From UHGV virus genome UHGV-0140516: DNA of 8,707 nucleotides; one strand, given 5' to 3'. Shown here in pieces: positions 1 to 8,707 of the stretch. Made by a program: the position numbers and the translations under genes. The stretch's first letter is position 1, and each line of letters opens with the position of its first letter. Under the pieces are notes generated by a model. That model made no database searches. It was given only the letters and a program-made list of their open reading frames with translations, and was not told where the DNA came from. This DNA comes from a virus.

Positions 1-693
1 AAGTACTGCCGAAAACGACGATACGCAATCAGCAACGTTCTTGATGATATGGTTGTCGGTGATGTGGGAAAAAAAGCAGAAGTGAGCGAGCGCGTACTAA
101 CAAACAAGGAGCTTGGGGAATTACTCCGCGCCCTGGATGACAAAATATTCCCGCCGTACTACAGCGCCCTAATTCGCCTCCTGATTGTTTTCGGATGCCG
201 TACCACCGAGCTAAGGCGCTCTGAGGTGCAGGAGTGGGATTTTAAAGAAATGCTCTGGACGGTACCGAAGGAGCACAGCAAAACGAAGGTCGCCATATTC
301 AGGCCAATACCGGAAAGCATTTTGCCGTTCATCACGCAGCTGGTGGAGCAGAACAGACACACGGGCTTATTGCTTGGTGAACTGAAAGGACAATCTTCGG
401 TAGCAGAGTACGGAAGAACAGCGCACAGACGAATTAATCAAGCCCCCTGGACGTTACACGATATCCGGCACACATTTACAACCATGCTGAACGATTTAGG
501 CGTGGATCCGCATATTGTCGAGCAGCTTACAGCCCACCAGATGCCAGGGATGCAACGAGTCTATAACCACTCCCGCTATCTTGATGCAAAACGTGATGCT
601 CTTAATCTATGGGTAGACCGTCTCGAGCTTCTCCAGAACAATGATGAAAAAATCGTTGTTATGACCCCGCGAATTTACACCCAAAATTCTTGA
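1..693 (+). CDS. int: Tyrosine recombinase / integrase, P4 family, C-terminal catalytic part (5'-truncated at window edge)
   Basis: Frame 1 is open from base 1 with no stop upstream of the listed Met at 49. The translation contains the tyrosine-recombinase catalytic motifs: Arg in FGCRTTELRR, H-x-x-R in LHDIRHTF, and His plus Tyr nucleophile in VYNHSRY. Stop TGA at 691-693. Confidence 0.85.
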   Translation, partial: KYCRKRRYAISNVLDDMVVGDVGKKAEVSERVLTNKELGELLRALDDKIFPPYYSALIRLLIVFGCRTTELRRSEVQEWDFKEMLWTVPKEHSKTKVAIFRPIPESILPFITQLVEQNRHTGLLLGELKGQSSVAEYGRTAHRRINQAPWTLHDIRHTFTTMLNDLGVDPHIVEQLTAHQMPGMQRVYNHSRYLDAKRDALNLWVDRLELLQNNDEKIVVMTPRIYTQNS

Positions 694-743
694 CAAATTA
701 CGGCTGTTTTTTCTTTAAGAGATTACAGCCGTGAATAAATCGT

Positions 744-813
744 AGAATATCAGAAAATATCTGCAAATATCTTCACTTTATATGTGTCAACCATCGAAAA
801 AATTGAAATATCT
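744..813. promoter_or_regulatory. Array of short direct repeats (RAATATC) at roughly helical spacing in the int-alpA intergenic region
   Basis: GAATATC at 745-751 and AAATATCT at 755-762, 765-772 and 806-813. The first three copies are 10-11 bp apart. The region between the int stop and the alpA start is AT-rich. Function (regulator or arm-type integrase sites) is inferred, not shown. Confidence 0.3.
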
Positions 814-1110
814 TCTTCTGAGTTCTTATTTTCTGTTTCTTGATTATTCCAACACCTGATGGTTTATCTATTTGTTTTTAATAAGATAATTCAAGTATCA
901 TGCCAAATGACGACATTTTTTGTTGCGTCGCTTAAAAACTCGTGACACGATTTTATGAACAGCAGCAAACTCTAGCGAACTTTGACGAACATAAAGTTCA
1001 GAAAGGTTACGTATTCAATTTAAGAGGTGAAAAAAGCTAAGAAGTATTCCTTCCCGTATATCCACAGCGAAACAAAAATTTCTATACGTAAATTTTATGT
1101 AGGGCTTTTT

Positions 1111-1320
1111 ATGCGCGAAATAAATGAAGATCGTGTAATCCGTGAAAAAGAATGCAGAGAGCTAACAGGCGTTTGCCGTACAACTCGTTATGAGATGGAA
1201 AAACAAGGCCGCTTTCCCTCCCGTATCAGTCTTGGAGGTCGTTCGGTTGGCTGGGTTAAGTCTGAGGTTATGGAATGGGTTAAAAGCCGGGATCGCATTA
1301 ATTCAGGAAAGGCAGCGTAA
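1111..1320 (+). CDS. alpA: AlpA-type (MerR-like HTH) prophage regulatory protein / excision-transcription regulator
   Basis: The 69-aa product MREINEDRVIREKECRELTGVCRTTRYEMEKQGRFPSRISLGGRSVGWVKSEVMEWVKSR shows the AlpA pattern (HTH, then FP-x-x-I-x-LG-x-R-SVGW-x-x-E-V-x-EW). ATG at 1111 is preceded by AGGG at 1101-1104. The track start at 1027 is GTG with AAGAGG abutting it at no spacing, so it is disfavoured. Confidence 0.75.
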   Translation: MREINEDRVIREKECRELTGVCRTTRYEMEKQGRFPSRISLGGRSVGWVKSEVMEWVKSRDRINSGKAA

Positions 1321-1710
1321 AGGGGAGCATATGACACATAAAACAAAGGCGACCGGGGGCGGTCGCCAATGGGAAAACACTAAACATAAGCCCGAACATC
1401 ATAGCGATTTGCTGGCTGGTGGGCAATGTGATCAGTGTACTGGCTTGCTGGTGGGCTATTCCTGCTCTTTAGCATCGCCATGCTGCGATGTTTTCCAGGT
1501 ATGCGATCCCATTTTTGTGCGCCTGTACTCTTTAAGGAACTTCTCAAGGACAAACGCACATGGTGCGAATCTCTCCGGTTCATGTTCGTTTACCGCATTT
1601 TTGCGTTGTTTTTTCTTGGATGAGGATAATTTCTTTAATGATTTGTCAGTCATCGTAGATACCTGTAACCCTGTGCGTCACAGTTCACCGCACCACGGCA
1701 CTGGTGATGG

Positions 1711-1890
1711 TTACTCCTGCTCTTTGGCCTTCCGGCGCTGGCGGCGTTTGATCTCGCCACGCATGGCTGTAACGATAAACTGCGCGTCTGTTTCGTTTTC
1801 CTCTTTGACCAAATTCATTTCGCTTAAAACTTCTAGAGGGATTCTAGCCGTTTTTTGTTGTGATTTGTTGTTGGTTGTACCCGTTGGCAT
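1711..1890 (-). CDS. Small Arc/Mnt-like ribbon-helix-helix DNA-binding protein (putative repressor), divergent from the replication operon
   Basis: Internal Met of the 115-aa minus ORF. ATG at 1890-1888 is preceded by a strong SD (AAGGAGG, complement of 1896-1902) at 5-6 nt spacing. The 59-aa product MPTGTTNNKSQQKTARIPLEVLSEMNLVKEENETDAQFIVTAMRGEIKRRQRRKAKEQE aligns with P22 Arc (RWPREVL / AEENGRSVNSEIYQRV versus RIPLEVL / KEENETDAQFIVTAMR). Basic C-terminal tail. Confidence 0.55.
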   Translation of the reverse strand: MPTGTTNNKSQQKTARIPLEVLSEMNLVKEENETDAQFIVTAMRGEIKRRQRRKAKEQE

Positions 1891-1951
1891 TACTGGCCTC
1901 CTTACTGTTAGGTGGCGTTCAGTATACGTAGAAAAAAAAATAAAAAAAGGC

Positions 1952-2002
1952 TTGAAGTGCAAGTCACCTAAAAGTAGCATAATCTTCAAAGGTGACTTGC
2001 AC
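1952..2002 (+). promoter_or_regulatory. Candidate sigma70 promoter for the replication operon, overlapped by a 13-bp perfect inverted repeat (putative operator)
   Basis: -35 TTGAAG at 1952-1957, 17-bp spacer, -10 TAGCAT at 1975-1980 (CATAAT at 1978-1983 as alternative). Inverted repeat GTGCAAGTCACCT at 1957-1969 and AGGTGACTTGCAC at 1990-2002 brackets the -10. On the opposite strand, a TATACT -10 (complement of 1921-1926) lies upstream of the RHH gene. Confidence 0.4.
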
Positions 2003-2083
2003 CTTAAAGACAAAGCCCCGCAAGTGTCGTTACCACTCGCAGGGCTTCTAACCACCAACGATAACGATAGTATCGAGGTAGCT

Positions 2084-2287
2084 ATGAGAAATCATACCAC
2101 ACACCCGCAAGGGCGGGACTCGCACAACCTGAATAAATACATCTGGCGTTTTATCGCCCTGAGCACGGCACAACCGCGCGTGATTACCATTGAGGCCACC
2201 AGCGAACAGGAAGCCCGCCAGCAATCCCCGGCTGGCTGCGTGATGGTATTCGCCGCCCGTATTCGTCAGGGGGTGTGCCATGCCTGA
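2084..2287 (+). CDS. Small hypothetical protein (67 aa), first gene of the replication operon; possibly of the short Icd-like family seen next to P4-type primases (unverified)
   Basis: ATG at 2084 with GAGG at 2075-2078. It is the 3' part of the long 1190..2287 track ORF, and only this part has a start and RBS. Product MRNHTTHPQGRDSHNLNKYIWRFIALSTAQPRVITIEATSEQEARQQSPAGCVMVFAARIRQGVCHA. Its stop overlaps the start of the next ORF (2280/2287). Confidence 0.5.
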   Translation: MRNHTTHPQGRDSHNLNKYIWRFIALSTAQPRVITIEATSEQEARQQSPAGCVMVFAARIRQGVCHA

Positions 2288-2600
2288 TATGTCAAATTAC
2301 CAGTACCTGATTAATCCGCATTTTAACTGTGAGCATGATATGGCTAAAAAGGTTTATTCCGCTGCGGATGGGGCTACTGACAATATATCAATGGCTGTTG
2401 CGTCAATTGGTAGCCTGATGTGGCATGCGTCAGAAAATGAGGACTATGACGAAAAGGCCATGCGCATTGATATGGGTAATATCGGTTTGTTACTGGCAAT
2501 GCTTGGGCAGTTTGATATTTCGTTACGGTGCACCATTGAAAATGCCACAGATGCATTAAATGCCATAAAGAAAGCGAATACTGATTCAAATCGGGGATAA
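2280..2600 (+). CDS. Hypothetical protein (106 aa), unknown function
   Basis: ATG at 2280 overlaps the upstream stop (translational coupling). AGGGGG lies about 10 nt upstream. No recognisable motif. Confidence 0.5.
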   Translation: MPDMSNYQYLINPHFNCEHDMAKKVYSAADGATDNISMAVASIGSLMWHASENEDYDEKAMRIDMGNIGLLLAMLGQFDISLRCTIENATDALNAIKKANTDSNRG

Positions 2601-2606
2601 ATAATC

Positions 2607-2906
2607 ATGAGAACATATTTATCTGGCTTGACTGCCAGCGGTTATGCACACCCCAAAATTATCCCCGGCGCTATTTATCTGGATAAGAACGGTAACAGAG
2701 TAACGGTAAAAGAACTGATGTTTGACCGTGTGTATTTTATTCGTGATGGATATTCATTTCATAGTTCGCTGAACGTGGAGATCTTTATTAGCAGATTCAG
2801 GCGGGAAATCCCGCTTTCCGGAAATAACCATGTGTCATGTCTGGATGTTGATAAAAAACTACAGGAACTGAAAAACATGATTGCCGCGTGGAGAGAGCAG
2901 AAATGA
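2607..2906 (+). CDS. Hypothetical protein (99 aa), unknown function
   Basis: Starts 7 nt after the upstream stop. Its TGA (2904-2906) overlaps the primase ATG (2903-2905) in an ATGA arrangement. No recognisable motif. Confidence 0.5.
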   Translation: MRTYLSGLTASGYAHPKIIPGAIYLDKNGNRVTVKELMFDRVYFIRDGYSFHSSLNVEIFISRFRREIPLSGNNHVSCLDVDKKLQELKNMIAAWREQK

Positions 2907-4720
2907 AAAAAGCGCCAAATTTAAAACACCAGCCGCGTGACAAAATGACGGAAGTCATCATTTTTGCGGGTAGTAATGCGTGGGCACATGCGAAGCAGTG
3001 GCAGGAACAGGACGGGCGACTGGCTGGCGATAACGTGCCTCCTGTCTGGCTTGGAGAGCAACAACTTGCCGAACTGGACAACCTGCAAATCGTACCGGAC
3101 GGACGCTATCGCGTGCGTCTCTATCAGGCGGGGTTATTGCGTCCGGGGCTTGTTAATACCATCGGGCAGAAACTGGCAGTGGCAGGTGTCAGGGATGCTG
3201 ATTATTACCCTGAAGGAATGCACAGCCAGAAACGGGAGAACTGGCGCGAATATCTGGAACGTGAACGGGCAGAGCAGGCGGAAAAGAAAAAGGTAGTTGA
3301 ACTGCCTGTAAAGAAAAAAGAGCGGGTAAAAGACGATAACGCTTCATCACTGGCGCTTAACCAGATGGGAGCAAGTCAACGCGGCGAAGTTCTCCTGGCA
3401 CATTATGGCGGTGAACTGGCGATTCATGCTGACTCTGACACTGTTCACCATTACAACGGCGTTGTATGGGAGCCAGTACAGGATAAAGAATTACAGCGAG
3501 CTATGGCACAGATTTTCATTGATGCGGAGATCAGCTATTCGCAGAACGCCATTAAATCGGCGGTCGATACCATGAAGTTAAGTTTGCCTGTAATGGGGAA
3601 TACAGCCCGTAACCTGATTGGATTCAGTAACGGGGTATTTGATACCAGAACAGGTAATTTTCGGGAGCATAACAAAAACGACTGGTTGTTAATTGCCAGT
3701 GAATTACCTTTCAGCCCACCAGCAGAGGGGGAAACGCTGGCAACACATGCGCCGAATTTCTGGAAGTGGTTACGCCGTTCGGTGGCTGAGAATGACCGCA
3801 AGGCGGATCGCGTACTGGCTGCATTATTCATGGTGCTGGCGAACCGGTACGACTGGCAGTTATTCATTGAGGTAACAGGTCCAGGGGGAAGTGGTAAAAG
3901 CGTGATGGCGGAGATTTGCACCATGCTGGCGGGTAAGGCCAACACAGTATCGGCAAGCATGAAGGCGCTGGAAGATGCAAGGGAACGCGCGTTAGTGGTT
4001 GGCTTTTCGCTGATTATCATGCCGGATATGACCCGCTACGCTGGTGATGGGGCAGGGATTAAGGCTATTACAGGCGGTGACAAGGTGGCAATTGACCCGA
4101 AACACAAAGCCCCCTACTCAACGCGTATTCCGGCAGTAGTGCTGGCGGTTAACAATAACGCCATGTCATTCAGTGACCGCAGCGGGGGGATCTCACGTCG
4201 TCGGGTGATATTCAATTTTTCGGAAGTTGTACCGGAGAACGAACGCGATCCAATGCTGGCGGAAAAAATAGAAGGTGAGCTGGCGGTAGTGATTCGCCAT
4301 CTGCTTACACGGTTTGCTGACCAGGACGAAGCCAGACGCCTGTTATATGAGCAGCAGAAATCTGAAGAAGCACTGGCGATAAAGCGAGAGGGGGATTCGC
4401 TGGTGGACTTCTGCGGCTATCTCATGGCGTCGGTAATGTGTGATGGCCTGTTAGTGGGTAATGCTGAAATTGTGCCATTCAGCCCACGCAGGTATCTCTA
4501 TCATGCCTATCTGGCTTATATGAGGGCACATGGGTTTGGTAAACCTGTAACACTGACGCGCTTCGGTAAAGATATGCCGGGGGCAATGGCGGAATATGGC
4601 AGGGAGTATATGAAACGGAAAACGAAGCACGGTTTTTGTTCAAACGTGACACTGACGGAGGAATCAGAAGACTGGATGCCATCATGTGTATCGGTCACTA
4701 ATGACGATAGTAAAAATTAA
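2903..4720 (+). CDS. P4-alpha-like primase/helicase replication protein (D5-type NTPase)
   Basis: 605-aa ORF. ATG at 2903 is preceded by GGAGAGAG at 2890-2897; the track start at 2888 is GTG. Walker A GPGGSGKS is encoded at 3878-3901, in frame. Followed immediately by the cognate-type iteron array. Large and well anchored. Confidence 0.85.
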   Translation: MKKAPNLKHQPRDKMTEVIIFAGSNAWAHAKQWQEQDGRLAGDNVPPVWLGEQQLAELDNLQIVPDGRYRVRLYQAGLLRPGLVNTIGQKLAVAGVRDADYYPEGMHSQKRENWREYLERERAEQAEKKKVVELPVKKKERVKDDNASSLALNQMGASQRGEVLLAHYGGELAIHADSDTVHHYNGVVWEPVQDKELQRAMAQIFIDAEISYSQNAIKSAVDTMKLSLPVMGNTARNLIGFSNGVFDTRTGNFREHNKNDWLLIASELPFSPPAEGETLATHAPNFWKWLRRSVAENDRKADRVLAALFMVLANRYDWQLFIEVTGPGGSGKSVMAEICTMLAGKANTVSASMKALEDARERALVVGFSLIIMPDMTRYAGDGAGIKAITGGDKVAIDPKHKAPYSTRIPAVVLAVNNNAMSFSDRSGGISRRRVIFNFSEVVPENERDPMLAEKIEGELAVVIRHLLTRFADQDEARRLLYEQQKSEEALAIKREGDSLVDFCGYLMASVMCDGLLVGNAEIVPFSPRRYLYHAYLAYMRAHGFGKPVTLTRFGKDMPGAMAEYGREYMKRKTKHGFCSNVTLTEESEDWMPSCVSVTNDDSKN

Positions 4721-4731
4721 ACTTATGGAAT

Positions 4732-4963
4732 AACTGTTCACCACTGTTCACCCTGTCATAAATATCTTTTATATCAGTATATTATAGGGTGAACAGTTAT
4801 TTATGAACTGTTCACCAAACTATTCACTGTTCACCTTTTTGATTGTTTATTGAGCTTCAAGGGTGAACAGTGGTGAACAGTTGGTGAATAGTTTTTGTGA
4901 AACTGTTCACCCCTTAACATTATGAATTAAAAGATAAAATATCAAAAGGTGAACAGGTGAAGG
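4732..4963. repeat. Replication-origin iteron array (P4 ori/crr type): at least 9 perfect TGTTCACC / GGTGAACA octamers in both orientations with AT-rich spacers
   Basis: Plus-orientation TGTTCACC at 4735-4742, 4745-4752, 4809-4816, 4828-4835 and 4904-4911. Minus-orientation GGTGAACA at 4788-4795, 4862-4869, 4872-4879 and 4948-4955. Degenerate copies at 4821-4828, 4883-4890 and 4956-4963. AT-rich stretches at 4760-4786 and 4918-4946 are candidate unwinding elements. TGTTCACC is the octamer I recall as the P4 alpha-protein binding iteron. Confidence 0.8.
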
Positions 4964-5007
4964 GTTAAAACGCAAAAATTTTAATTTACTGCTGTGAGAT
5001 AAAGCCT

Positions 5008-5253
5008 ATGACAGCGAAGCACACAAAAAAATCACAATCGCACGCCCTTGATTTGACGGAACACTGGTTAAGGGTGTCGATAAAAATCATCGACCGCAAC
5101 GCCGGGGAAGGATATGCGAAAGCACATCCCGAACTGATTAGCGCATTCATGACAACGGCAGCTGCAAACTTTGCCACGCTGACAGAACGGGAGATTGCCG
5201 AAGCGGAACAGGTGACAACCATCAACGTTAAAACCGGAGAGCAGACAGCATGA
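5008..5253 (+). CDS. Hypothetical protein (81 aa), translationally coupled to the SSB-like gene
   Basis: ORF starts just downstream of the iteron array. Its TGA (5251-5253) overlaps the ATG (5250-5252) of the next gene. No recognisable motif; weak RBS. Confidence 0.45.
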   Translation: MTAKHTKKSQSHALDLTEHWLRVSIKIIDRNAGEGYAKAHPELISAFMTTAAANFATLTEREIAEAEQVTTINVKTGEQTA

Positions 5254-5672
5254 CAGCACAGATAGCGGCTTACGGGCGGCTGGTGGCTGACCCGCAGTTA
5301 AAGACCACCAGCAAGGGTACACAAATGACGATGGCTAGTATGGCGGTCCCCCTTCCGTGCAGCCAGGCAGATGACGGAACGGCGACGATGTGGTTATCCG
5401 TCCTGGCGTTTGGCAGACAGGCCGACGCACTGGCAAAACACCACAAAGGCGAACTGGTGAGCGTGGCGGGTAACATGCAGGTAAGCCAGTGGACAGGCCA
5501 GAACGGCGAAACGCGGCAGGGCTGGCAGGTTATCGCAGACAGCGTAATCAGTGCGAGAACGGCGCGACCGGGCGGCAAAAAAGGCCAGCAAGGGCAGGCT
5601 ACTGACGCACTGAACAGGGCAAAACAACAGGCGGGTAACGATGATCCGTACGGGGATAACATACCGTTTTAA
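5250..5672 (+). CDS. ssb: Single-stranded DNA-binding protein family (short SSB-like OB-fold protein with C-terminal DNIPF tip)
   Basis: Aligns by eye to E. coli SSB across the OB fold (G-x-L-x-x-DP; W-x-x-V-x-x-FG-x-x-A; KG-x-x-V-x-x-x-G-x-x-x-x-x-x-WT-x-Q-x-G-x-x-R). Ends in DDPYGDNIPF, resembling the SSB DDDIPF partner-binding tip. Shorter than host SSB (140 versus about 178 aa). Confidence 0.7.
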   Translation: MTAQIAAYGRLVADPQLKTTSKGTQMTMASMAVPLPCSQADDGTATMWLSVLAFGRQADALAKHHKGELVSVAGNMQVSQWTGQNGETRQGWQVIADSVISARTARPGGKKGQQGQATDALNRAKQQAGNDDPYGDNIPF

Positions 5673-5923: not shown

Positions 5924-6130
5924 ATGGCAGAAGAGAAAAAAGGCGGGGTGACAGTTTACATAAGCCCAGACATCGTGGAGGCGCTCAAGGAACGCCACCA
6001 GCAGAACGTAAAAGCAGGCATTGCGGCAGGACTTGAGCCGCTGGCGATGGTTGAGCCGTCAACAGGCTGGCAGGTACGCGCCTATTTACGCGCGGCGCTG
6101 GGCATGAATCAGACTCATGGGGGTGAATAA
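5924..6130 (+). CDS. Hypothetical protein (68 aa), first ORF of the head module
   Basis: ATG at 5924 with AAAGAGGAA at 5906-5914. The track start at 5891 is GTG inside the palindrome, so it is disfavoured. The stop TAA overlaps the capsid-gene ATG (TAATG at 6128-6132). Confidence 0.5.
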   Translation: MAEEKKGGVTVYISPDIVEALKERHQQNVKAGIAAGLEPLAMVEPSTGWQVRAYLRAALGMNQTHGGE

Positions 6131-7185
6131 TGACAGGCAAAGCAACGGCACTTAACACTAACCAGCTTTTCGCGTACCTGAATCGTGGGGATATTTCGGA
6201 ATTTAAATTCAGTCCGCTGTTTACGTCGCTGTTTTTCCCGAACGTGGCAACCTTCAACACGCAGGACATCATGTTAGATACCCTGGATATTGAAGAAGTC
6301 ACCATGTCGGCTTTTTGTTCGCCTATGGTGGGGAGTCAGGTTCAGCGCGATAAAGGGTACGAAACAAGCACTATCCGCCCTGGCTACATGAAACCAAAAC
6401 ACGAAATCGATCCATCAAAAACCATCATGCGCATGGCTGGAGAAGATCCGGCACAGCTTAACGATCCAACTTATCGCCGTATGCGCCTGATTACTGGCAA
6501 CATGCGCCGCCAGGTAAACGCTATTAAAGCTCGCATAGAATGGCTGGCGGTGAATGCGGTCACGACCGGAAAAAACATCATTGAGGGCGAAGGAATAAAT
6601 AGATACGAAATCGATTGGAAAATCCCGACTAAAAACATCATTACGCAGGGATCGGGCAAAAAGTGGTCTGAGGCAGATAAGGAAACACACGATCCAATCT
6701 ATGACATCGAACTATACACCGATCAGGCTGGTTGCCCCGCCAACGTCATGATTATGGGCGCTGAGGTATGGCGCACGTTACGCAGCTTTAAAAAATTCCG
6801 TGAACTGTACGATCTTTCCCGTGGTTCAGAATCCGCCGCAGAGCTGGCCTGTAAAAACCTGGGCGAAGTAGTGAGCTTTAAAGGCTATCTGGGTGATCTG
6901 GCCCTTATCGTCTATTCCGGCAAATACACCGACAGCGATGGCACCGAAAAATATTTCCTTGAGCCTGATTTGCTTGTCCTGGGCAACACTAACAATAAAG
7001 GGCTGGTGGCCTATGGTGCGATTATGGATCCGGAAGCGGTAAGAACTGGCGCAACGCAAAACATGTACTACCCGAAAAACTGGATTGAGGATGGCGATCC
7101 GGCGATTGAGTACGTGCAGACGCACAGCGCACCGCAGCCGGTACCGGCAGATATTCGCAAATTTGTTACCGTCAAAATTGCTTAA
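6130..7185 (+). CDS. Major capsid protein, lambda gpE family
   Basis: 351-aa product aligns to lambda gpE over its whole length by eye: KFxPLF...LFF near the N-terminus, PGY(V/M)KPKHE, DP-x-x-L-x-DP-x-YRR-x-R-x-I-x-x-NMR, SYKG / SFKG, VVYSG / IVYSG, LGNT, YPKNW and a C-terminal GDPA. Similar length (351 versus 341 aa). Confidence 0.9.
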   Translation: MTGKATALNTNQLFAYLNRGDISEFKFSPLFTSLFFPNVATFNTQDIMLDTLDIEEVTMSAFCSPMVGSQVQRDKGYETSTIRPGYMKPKHEIDPSKTIMRMAGEDPAQLNDPTYRRMRLITGNMRRQVNAIKARIEWLAVNAVTTGKNIIEGEGINRYEIDWKIPTKNIITQGSGKKWSEADKETHDPIYDIELYTDQAGCPANVMIMGAEVWRTLRSFKKFRELYDLSRGSESAAELACKNLGEVVSFKGYLGDLALIVYSGKYTDSDGTEKYFLEPDLLVLGNTNNKGLVAYGAIMDPEAVRTGATQNMYYPKNWIEDGDPAIEYVQTHSAPQPVPADIRKFVTVKIA

Positions 7186-7196
7186 CGGGGGATTCT

Positions 7197-7532
7197 ATGA
7201 ACACTCCATACATTGAGTTATTTGCAGGCAGTCAGCAGGTATCCACGACGCTGGTACATTTTGCCGCTGATGCTGGAGTTATTCAGGAATTTACCCCGCT
7301 GATGCTGGCGGACAATGGCGAGTTTAAGCCGTGGGATGGTCAGGAATCTGGCAAGGCTGTTTATCTGACCTCGTACCCCGTTGACACGTCGACGCAGAAA
7401 TCAGCACAGTGCTATAAGACGGGGATATTTAATATCGCCGCCGTTAACTGGCCTGAGAGCGTCGACACCGATGCGAAAAAATGCGCCGCCTTTGCGGGTT
7501 CTGGCGTATCCGTTCAGCCACTGGCCCGATAA
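7197..7532 (+). CDS. Head decoration protein, lambda gpD family
   Basis: 111-aa product shares with lambda gpD the motifs TPLML, WDG, YK(S/T)G-x-F, WPE and KK-x-x-AFAG. Near-identical length (111 versus 110 aa). RBS GGGGGA upstream. Confidence 0.8.
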   Translation: MNTPYIELFAGSQQVSTTLVHFAADAGVIQEFTPLMLADNGEFKPWDGQESGKAVYLTSYPVDTSTQKSAQCYKTGIFNIAAVNWPESVDTDAKKCAAFAGSGVSVQPLAR

Positions 7533-7544
7533 GCAGAGGGAACG

Positions 7545-7958
7545 ATGGCAACGAATGAAAGTATCATGACGCTACCGCTGGCGAGTAAATTTAAGGCCGA
7601 AGCGCGGGCAATGGCTGACAGAGGTTTATCAACCTACGAGGCCGTATATCAACTTAACAGCCTGGAAGAGAAGGACAAGCCGCGCTCTGATGCGATTATG
7701 GCGCTTGATGAATCTGGCGACTATCAGCCGCTGTTACGTGCAATGGCAAACGTGCCTTGTATCGATGTTGGTACGGCTAAAAGCATCCTTAGCATGACCA
7801 TAGAGCAGGAACGCCAGAAGGTTGCACCAGAGCTTACCGCAGCCTTTGAAAACTTTATGGACATGCACAGCCCGAAAGCCGTATCAGCTGGTATGGCATA
7901 CGCTGGCAGAAACCCGGGCGATGATGGCGACATCGATCGCATACTGAAAACCATCTGA
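7545..7958 (+). CDS. Hypothetical protein (137 aa) between the decoration gene and cos; function unknown
   Basis: Good RBS (AGAGGGAA 5 nt upstream of the ATG). Followed by a strong terminator. No similarity to lambda FI, FII or W that I can see. Confidence 0.6.
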   Translation: MATNESIMTLPLASKFKAEARAMADRGLSTYEAVYQLNSLEEKDKPRSDAIMALDESGDYQPLLRAMANVPCIDVGTAKSILSMTIEQERQKVAPELTAAFENFMDMHSPKAVSAGMAYAGRNPGDDGDIDRILKTI

Positions 7959-7962
7959 GACA

Positions 7963-7987
7963 AGGCCGGAGAAATCCGGCTTTTTTT
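7963..7987 (+). terminator. Rho-independent terminator ending the head-gene operon
   Basis: Stem GGCCGGA (7964-7970), loop GAAA, stem TCCGGC (7975-7980), then a T7 run (7981-7987). Near-duplicate of the terminator at 5687-5710. Confidence 0.75.
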
Positions 7988-8160
7988 ACGGGTCCTTTCC
8001 GGCATATGAACCCGTTACGGGGCGGCGACCTCGCGGTTTTTCGCTATTTATGAGCTTTTTCAGGGTGGTGGTGGTGGTTTTGTTGTTTGCTCTATCTCCA
8101 TGAATAAAAAGGGAAAGATAACACCAACACACCAACCTGAAACCTTGACCAAGTTGGGAT
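7988..8160 (+). other. cos: Lambda-type cos site: cosQ-like element, cosN with a 12-nt cohesive-end sequence identical to lambda, and a divergent cosB-like region
   Basis: ACGGGTCCTTTCCGG (7988-8002) matches the lambda right-end cosQ region. GTTACG then GGGCGGCGACCT (8020-8031) is the lambda cohesive-end sequence. CGCGGTTTTTCGCTATTTATGA (8032-8053) matches lambda left-end bases 13-35 with about one substitution. Downstream (8054-8160) differs from lambda cosB and contains GGTGGTGGTGGTGG (8065-8078) and the oppositely oriented CACCAACACACCAACC (8123-8138). Confidence 0.85.
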
Positions 8161-8164
8161 ATTG

Positions 8165-8707
8165 ATGAAATCGCACCTGATGAACAAAAAAACCATGGCG
8201 CAAAGCTGCCGGGTAAGTGCTACAGCATTCGACAAGTGGGGAGTGACTCCCGTTGAACGTAAAGGCCGTGAGGCGTTTTATGATGTTGCCAGCGTGATAG
8301 ACAATAGGGTTAACAATGCAATTAGCCAGCTTACAAACGACAAAGGCGAGATTGATGATGATGAACTCTTACGAGTCAGGATCAGATTACTGACAGCACA
8401 GGCGGAGGCGCAGGAACTTAAAAACGAGCGCGATCGCGGTGACGTGATTGATACAGAGTTTTGCATGTACGCCCTTTCAAAACTGGCGAGTCAGATTTCA
8501 TCAATCATGGACAGCCTCCCGCTTACTATGCAAAGGAGCTTCCCACAGATGACCCCCGTCATGCTGGATGGCCTGAAAAAAGAAGTTGTCAGAGCCTGTA
8601 ACGCATGCACAAAACTTGATGAAAACATCCCGCGAATGCTGTCCGATTATCTGATGGAAACTACCGGAAATGTGCCTGATAAGTTTCAGCCGGATAAAGA
8701 CAAGTAA
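8165..8707 (+). CDS. Terminase small subunit, lambda Nu1 family
   Basis: Lambda Nu1 LTRAQADAQELKNARDSAEVVETAFCTFVLSRIAGEIASILDGLPLSVQRRFPE...LDELIPGLLSEY aligns with LTAQAEAQELKNERDRGDVIDTEFCMYALSKLASQISSIMDSLPLTMQRSFPQ...LDENIPRMLSDY. The N-terminal NKK...wHTH region is more divergent. First ATG is at 8165; the track start at 8162 is TTG; the ATG at 8180 matches the Nu1 N-terminus better. Position just downstream of cos, as in lambda. Confidence 0.85.
   Translation: MKSHLMNKKTMAQSCRVSATAFDKWGVTPVERKGREAFYDVASVIDNRVNNAISQLTNDKGEIDDDELLRVRIRLLTAQAEAQELKNERDRGDVIDTEFCMYALSKLASQISSIMDSLPLTMQRSFPQMTPVMLDGLKKEVVRACNACTKLDENIPRMLSDYLMETTGNVPDKFQPDKDK

Follow-up and report, generated by a model that had tools for sequence, protein, structure and literature searches.

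Can a small terminase gene carried by a satellite direct the packaging machinery of a helper phage to the satellite's own DNA? The DNA studied here (UHGV virus genome UHGV-0140516; 8,707 nucleotides, hereafter the window) ends at the stop codon of a gene that the original prediction took for a satellite-encoded, Nu1-like small terminase (TerS), which would recruit a lambdoid large terminase (TerL) to the island's own cos. Steering of helper packaging by a satellite TerS is expected for such islands, for which TerS has been listed among the core PICI components as 'responsible for redirecting the packaging' (de Sousa et al. 2023, PMC10085698). Genes for virulence and for defence against phages are spread by PICIs, which are also being engineered to deliver DNA. 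Only the Rpp route of redirecting packaging has been elucidated in Gram-negative cos PICIs, and TerS islands have been annotated since 2018.

The terS gene and its island

The terS gene lies on the + strand, from an ATG at 8165 to a TAA ending at 8707, and encodes a protein of 180 aa. A TTG is present at 8162, just 5' of this ATG; the RefSeq annotation of relatives uses the start homologous to the ATG at 8165. A Pfam profile search matched the protein to PF07471 (Phage_Nu1) with 81 bits (cut-off 30), the match being limited to aa 64-148 (profile positions 77-161 of 164). The match to phrog_57 spans aa 1-174, and BLASTP against lambda Nu1 gave 66/179 identical residues (37%, E = 1e-35), all of which bears out the proposed Nu1-like identity. 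The N-terminal 71 aa alone matched no Pfam family at E <= 1, the NCBIfam search gave no family for TerS, and no PDB chain was matched, 1J9I (DNA-binding domain of lambda Nu1) and 6HLK (RppC) included; PDB matches for Nu1-type TerS are short DNA-binding-domain fragments only (54-101 aa). As in the Nu1-type arrangement, terS is placed directly 3' of cosQ-cosN-cosB (cosN at 8020-8031), ~145 bp downstream of cosQ/cosN sequences identical to those of lambda. The 3' half of the gene is matched in 792 of 5426 complete E. coli genomes (~15%).

The window is a nearly complete E. coli PICI, running from inside the integrase gene to the terS stop with all genes on the + strand. Its backbone (49 to 5672) was assigned from profile matches and from the annotation of two collinear islands, L001 and L106 (the island of strain IHE3034). 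The genes are as follows:

49-693, + strand: tyrosine integrase, 3' part
within 1027-1320, + strand: AlpA-like regulator
2607-2906, + strand: DUF4222 protein
2888-4720, + strand: D5-type primase/helicase
5250-5672, + strand: SSB
6130-7185, + strand: gpE-like major capsid protein (Phage_cap_E, E = 3.3e-52; 43% identical to lambda gpE)
7197-7532, + strand: gpD-like head decoration protein (HDPD, E = 3.4e-18; 37% identical to lambda gpD)
7545-7958, + strand: 137-aa ORF (phrog_1999), between the decoration gene and cos
8165-8707, + strand: terS, Nu1-family small terminase

This is the core PICI order (int, alpA-type gene, primase/replicase, capsid homologue, TerS; gene list in PMC10085698) in an island of ~10 kb with no tail or lysis genes. 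A tblastn search of the window with lambda head and packaging proteins found only E (43%), D (37%) and Nu1 (37%); A, W, B, C, Nu3, FI and FII gave no match there, and the window holds neither a portal nor a protease gene. That terS is satellite-encoded, as had been proposed, is confirmed by this content and by the collinearity of the window with the published IHE3034 PICI. Readings of the window as a defective prophage or as a P4-like element were rejected on gene content, and so was a cf-PICI, whose own TerL, portal, protease and connector genes are absent from the window and annotated in none of its relatives. Sequence comparison ruled out the 137-aa ORF as an Rpp, and none was found elsewhere in the window. 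This ORF is weakly similar to the C-terminal, scaffold-like end of the head-maturation protease family phrog_53 (E = 1.3e-8), and its slot holds a 127-aa AlpA-like HTH protein in the backbones L018 and L103.

The original prediction had left room for a TerL gene beyond terS, where the window stops. The window includes neither end of the island, and its nearest full-length relatives are found between cspD/yljB and clpS. Downstream of terS, L001 (90% identical across the window), L018 (TerS 100% identical) and L106 have an ORF of ~93 aa and then host clpS; in L002 the integrase of a tandem copy of the island comes next. None of 39 IMG/VR loci with a TerS at least 84% identical carries a gpA homologue 3' of terS (up to 4 kb, less on short contigs), and nearly all of the 32 loci with a TerS less than ~51% identical have gpA immediately downstream. 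A downstream TerL gene is thus lacking in all these close relatives, and with it the adjacent or overlapping TerL gene typical of phage Nu1 genes, which sets the satellite version apart from the phage version. Since the island encodes no TerL, it would depend on that of a helper. By homology and context, 8165-8707 encodes the small terminase subunit of an E. coli PICI of the cos type, in the class of the IHE3034 island.

Two other arrangements were noted. L002 (E. coli A33, 1-19387) contains at least three tandem PICI copies, each running from int to terS, with many genes annotated as frameshifted, which probably reflects assembly quality. L022 (E. coli STEC276, 19642-21440) is a PICI at tRNA-Pro without capsid genes. 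It encodes a 169-aa 'DUF1441 family protein' and a 200-aa 'terminase small subunit', both TerS-like and oriented in opposite directions.

Domains of TerS and anatomy of cos

The proposed recruitment of a lambdoid TerL leaned on the idea that the C-terminal two-thirds of TerS, including the part that contacts gpA, are clearly conserved with lambda Nu1, and that the N-terminal region is much less so. We compared the protein with lambda Nu1 domain by domain, and distinguish four parts:

aa ~1-54: N15-type DNA-binding domain, predicted winged HTH by homology to N15 gp1
aa 55-85: linker
aa 86-126: conserved assembly region
aa 127-180: variable C-terminal tail

Identity to lambda Nu1 amounts to 15/50 (30%) in the DNA-binding domain, 45% in the linker, 21/41 (51%) in the self-assembly region, where the motif AQA.AQELKN is nearly identical, and 14/41 (34%) in the TerL-binding tail. 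Lambda and phage 21 are 32% identical in this tail, a distance similar to that of the island tail, and the TerL partners of their terminases are not interchangeable (Murialdo and Feiss 2022, PMC9026076). Because 34% identity resembles the distance between these two phages, whose TerL specificities differ, the gpA-contacting tail is not clearly conserved. As judged from the alignment, only the central part of TerS (aa ~72-126) is clearly conserved with lambda. The expected conservation therefore holds for the centre of the protein but not for its gpA-binding tail, which is about as far from lambda as the DNA-binding domain is. Likewise, the lower conservation of the N-terminus agrees with its failure to match Pfam or PDB on its own, but at 30% its identity is about that of the tail.

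Neither is the DNA-binding region unusual in its divergence. The best match to TerS among ~50,000 phage records is gp1 of phage N15 (47.5% overall), which is a full-length Pfam Nu1 member. The first 52 residues of TerS align with N15 gp1 without gaps (30/52 identical, E = 2e-23), compared with 17/45 identical and a 5-residue gap against lambda (E = 4e-5), and TerS and N15 gp1 have common deletions relative to lambda in the recognition-helix/wing region. In an AF2 model of low to moderate confidence (mean pLDDT 68; 75-80 over aa 11-40), a strand, helix 1, helix 2, a beta-hairpin and a long helix 3 follow each other at aa 5-56, the order expected of a winged HTH. A Foldseek search of this model against the PDB placed MerR-type winged-HTH proteins on top, all at E > 0.1 and none significant, in weak agreement with a winged HTH. 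By its alignment to gp1, the N-terminal domain of TerS is N15-type and not a novel divergent one.

The cos region upstream of terS contains the following features:

7962-7987, + strand: terminator-like GC-rich hairpin with T7 behind it, between the 137-aa ORF and cosQ
7985-8002, + strand: cosQ-region sequence TTTACGGGTCCTTTCCGG, 18 bp, identical to the lambda stretch directly upstream of cosN, the site of cosQ
8020-8031, + strand: cosN cohesive-end sequence GGGCGGCGACCT, identical to lambda's (alignment with lambda cos, motif positions)
8032-8164, + strand: cosB region and terS leader, unrelated to lambda cosB
8067-8088, + strand: putative R3-equivalent GGTGGTGGTGGTTTTGTTGTTT (GGT/GTT block), bp 48-69 from the first base of cosN

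Conservation of cosQ and cosN has been reported for PICIs (PMC9026076). Here, positions 8014-8052 around cosN nearly match lambda and the similarity ends beyond them. Neither a lambda- or 21-type R3-I1-R2-R1 array nor an IHF consensus was found at 8032-8164. Hence, as had been anticipated, this cos differs from that of lambda in the site that TerS would read: cosQ and cosN match, cosB does not.

The GGT/GTT block coincides with the R3 position of lambda (bp 50-65) and of N15 (bp 48-60, GAGGTTGTTGTTT; PMC9026076). In Enterobacter/Citrobacter-type islands, 18-19 of its 22 positions are conserved between flanks that are only 36-57% identical; the TerS of these PICIs is 57-59% identical to the island TerS overall and 70% in the DNA-binding domain. 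The block thus has the appearance of a phylogenetic footprint at the place expected for TerS, and we propose it as a candidate site that TerS would bind. We also found, inside terS (8333-8345) and in the same codon region as the remote 'rR2' of N15, an inverted near-match to the R3-like core; it is not claimed as a site because ~6 matches of such quality are expected by chance in the search space.

Other repeats and signals in this region are recorded here as observations. A 13-nt inverted repeat lies within the cosB region and leader (8058-8070 / 8130-8142). Another of 13 nt, with 12/13 positions complementary, links TGGTTTTGTTGTT in the GGT/GTT block (8075-8087) to AACAAAAAAACCA in terS codons 7-11 (8183-8195) and may be coincidental. 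In the Rpp-type island L005, CACCACCACCAC at bp 54-65 from cosN of cos1 (11151-11216) reads on the other strand like the (GGT)n run found at bp ~45-58 from cosN in TerS-type islands (compared stretch 8064-8080); this likeness could be due to chance or mark a related, inverted site. We spotted the hairpin at 7962-7987 by eye and then folded it; it is absent from the consensus terminator scan, and the segment containing it (7950-7995) folds with -19.1 kcal/mol (z = -3.2). The promoter/terminator scan flagged only the cosN palindrome, and no sigma-70-like promoter was found on the + strand of the scanned region 7500-8707. Should the hairpin act as a terminator, expression of terS would require read-through, a separate promoter or transcripts that cross cos in the circular or concatemeric form.

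Exchange of the cosB reader and probable capture of a helper terminase

Comparison of closely related islands indicates how this cosB and its reader vary. L005 has the same backbone and att site as L001 and carries, after cos, a 144-aa Rpp (6HLK, E = 4e-32) where L001 carries TerS. The two islands match at 97.6% identity as far as bp 41 from the start of cosN, and become similar again at the 93-aa ORF. Thus cosB plus reader form a discrete, replaceable unit. The island TerS cannot itself be taken for an Rpp, as it carries the Nu1 C-terminal half and has no 6HLK match at E <= 1. A third arrangement is found in P0099, whose TerS combines a phage-21-type DNA-binding domain (97% identity to gp1 aa 1-101) with a C-terminal half 95% identical to that of the window TerS, the gene adjoining a 21-like tripartite cosB. 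We observe therefore that cosB changes together with the DNA-binding domain of TerS, and that cosQ/cosN and the rear of TerS stay constant, the pattern that would be expected of cognate reader-site pairs. At least three solutions are seen on the shared backbone:

Solution 1, this window: N15-type TerS with a (GGT)n(GTT)n site
Solution 2: phage-21-type DNA-binding domain fused to the island-specific C-terminal half
Solution 3: Rpp

In L006 (E. coli PM4-5, 11692-12614) there are two cos sites. The first, on the + strand, has a 21-like tripartite cosB with no reader gene behind it; the second belongs to an inverted cos-cosB-terS cassette, with terS on the - strand (12425-11883).

Among 72 full-length island TerS proteins, aa 1-120 are almost invariant and variation is concentrated in aa 121-180, with two main tail types. 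Between the window and L001, terS has a dN/dS of 0.15, and full-length TerS, including the tail, is under purifying selection (dN/dS 0.14-0.24). In the last 60 codons dS is high (1.17 vs 0.26) with a similar dN/dS (0.14), and the tail is therefore an older recombined allele, not a decaying one. That the tail is kept and under selection argues that TerS binds TerL itself, unlike Rpp. We considered whether the two tail alleles are paired with different types of helper TerL, an idea that gained no support, both occurring in prophages with a lambda-type gpA (two embedded examples).

These embedded examples point to a candidate helper. Islands with a TerS 84-88% identical interrupt gene B or gene E of lambda-like prophages; the two junctions occur in 57 and 40 complete E. 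coli genomes. In the two examples analysed, the prophage Nu1 (179/181 and 177/181) and gpA (637/641 and 639/641) are 98-99% identical to those of lambda, so that co-residence with a lambda-type terminase is directly observed. In L103 the cosN sequence is the same in prophage and island, and cosB is of lambda type in the prophage and of GGT/GTT type in the island. The enclosing prophage has been described as the helper for helper-embedded PICIs (PMC10111431). The embedded relatives are islands other than the window's own; they are the best available evidence, of a circumstantial kind, that this TerS family may work with lambda-type gpA. No phage with a closely matching TerS tail was found in the phage collection, the best being PhiR5_1 with 51% over 65 aa.

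The embedding sites are the portal gene B or the major capsid gene E, and the loci are L103 (E. coli JNE23-011, 5700-18226), L104 (AST216, 9987-21745) and L012-L017. The island in gene E of L104 has GGGCGTCAGGCG at the cosN cohesive end (18650-18670), about half of whose positions differ from the GGGCGGCGACCT of its host prophage; L009 and L011 have GGGCGTCGACCT there. In contigs of the Enterobacter/Citrobacter type, a TerS-type PICI precedes a truncated capsid gene, which is followed by FI, FII, Z, U and V.

We consider it probable that the island TerS reads its own cosB, recruits the TerL of a helper to the lambda-type cosN and directs island concatemers into helper heads. A lambda-like helper would induce the island, leading to its excision and replication as concatemers. 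TerS would then bind its cosB through the N15-type domain, a predicted winged HTH, with the GGT/GTT block at bp 48-69 from cosN as the key site, and its assembly region and C-terminal tail would recruit the helper's lambda-type gpA. The latter would nick the lambda-identical cosN and package island DNA into helper-built heads until the next usable cosQ/cosN is reached. Helper Nu1 reads a different cosB, and helper and island DNAs would therefore be discriminated, with interference as a possible outcome beside redirection. The predicted specificity-swapped TerS with a lambdoid TerL as partner is in keeping with the PICI context, the lack of TerL, the co-variation of cosB and the lambda-type prophage neighbours; the supposedly conserved gpA-binding part, at 34% identity, does not speak for it. 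Against redirection stands the report that the PICIs of E. coli IHE3034 and 18098, which encode TerS, hardly moved out of their native strains upon induction with mitomycin (PMC6092414), where neither a helper nor a mechanism was given. The deviating cosN of the embedded island in L104 and the distance of the island tail from those in the phage collection also weigh against it. Judged on sequence relationships, redirection through the helper TerL appears well supported circumstantially.

A broader reading, which we put forward tentatively and at slightly less than even odds, is that cosB and its reader are swappable as a unit after a fixed lambda-type cosQ/cosN, and that the central and tail regions of island TerS have diverged from helper Nu1 in a way that still captures lambda-type gpA and avoids mixing with the helper TerS. 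If this is true, TerS-type islands need the TerL of the helper and not its TerS, the opposite of Rpp-type islands.

The best conserved region of TerS relative to lambda is the one for assembly (51%, with AQA.AQELKN), and near-identical islands carry in the same slot an Rpp, which acts through a complex with the helper TerS (PMC6739421). Both facts would suit an adaptor-like mode of action, in which TerS, not binding TerL itself, enters mixed oligomers with helper Nu1 through its central region, these oligomers read the island cosB, and Nu1 provides the link to gpA. We find this unlikely, given that Rpp has no TerL-binding tail and the island TerS keeps a full-length one under purifying selection; moreover, the DNA-binding domains of TerS and Nu1 differ in length and sequence, which makes a heterodimer mediated by these domains, in the manner of Rpp and TerS, less likely.

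Still less plausible is that TerS serves as a decoy which titrates the helper TerL or poisons the terminase so that phage packaging is blocked, and adds little to packaging of the island, left to helper Nu1 at another cos. Some relatives do have a further cos whose phage-like tripartite cosB could be read directly by helper TerS (L006 at 11692, L005 at 11901), but the window, L001, L018 and L106 show one cos only, adjoining terS, and co-variation of cosB with the DNA-binding domain is not required of a pure decoy. Finally, homology of terS to phage TerS and the nearby gpE- and gpD-like genes might suggest a functionless remnant of a defective lambdoid or N15-like prophage, a reading that we give next to no weight because terS is intact, widespread in the complete E. 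coli genomes and under selection (dN/dS 0.15), sits always in an island of ~10 kb with int, alpA and primase genes whose att sites are fixed, and belongs to an architecture published as that of PICIs (PMC6092414, PMC10085698).

Relation to known packaging systems

The preferred reading, direct recruitment of a helper TerL by the island TerS, can be set against systems already described. The closest is the PICI of E. coli IHE3034 (Fillol-Salom et al. 2018, ISME J, PMC6092414), which occupies the same att site, cspD/clpS, as the relatives of the window and whose genes come in the order seen here (int, alpA, primase, SSB, capsid, decoration, 137-aa ORF, cos, terS). Its TerS is identical to that of the window at 152/174 positions (87%) and its cos/cosB is 95% identical, GGT/GTT block included; it differs in its allele of the C-terminal tail (aa ~127-180). 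Because the IHE3034 PICI carries the same module, the terS module of the window belongs to an already published class. Our searches of the open-access literature brought up neither functional work on E. coli PICIs of the TerS type nor any mention of the N15-type domain, the candidate site, the limits of the cassette or an association with lambda-type prophages. These are refinements and not a new kind of system; what they add is an N15-type domain, a candidate site at 8067-8088, exact boundaries of the cassette, and prophage-embedded relatives that point to lambda-type gpA.

Among phages, N15 provides the closest reader. Its gp1 is 59% identical to the island TerS in the DNA-binding domain, with the same indels relative to lambda, and its single-R3 cosB resembles that of the island in being compact, with no IHF site and with a GTT-repeat element at the R3 position (PMC9026076). 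The differences are that the N15 gene overlaps its own TerL gene, which the island lacks, that the tail is 80% identical to lambda in N15 and 34% in the island, that the GTTGTTT core of the island is shifted by ~9 bp and preceded by (GGT)4, and that cosN and terS lie 57 bp further apart in the island. Lambda gpNu1 shares with the island TerS its family, its three-part layout, its position after cosQ-cosN-cosB and an identical cosN; the island protein has a 13-residue extension beyond the aligned end, and the island has neither the R3-I1-R2-R1 array nor an adjacent gene A. The lambda-21 hybrid TerS (PMC9026076) and the natural chimera P0099 show that DNA-binding and TerL-binding parts are separable modules, the window TerS carrying an N15-type module where P0099 has the DNA-binding domain of phage 21.

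Among satellites, the TerS_S of SaPIs also pairs with a helper TerL for satellite packaging (PMC6739421), but the likeness is functional only: SaPIs package by headful (pac) and not by cos, and their interference needs a partner protein, Ppi. In near-identical islands, the place of terS behind a lambda-like cosN is taken by a gene for an Rpp protein (RppA/B/C; Fillol-Salom et al. 2019, PMC6739421), again with a cosB specific to the island, and the presumed purpose of Rpp, the retargeting of the helper terminase, is that of the island TerS. Rpp proteins are shorter (139-154 aa), combine a winged HTH with a C-terminal coiled-coil dimer, lack the Nu1 C-terminal half and need the helper TerS as an adaptor. 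Beside Rpp, the island TerS would matter mainly as a second, simpler solution.
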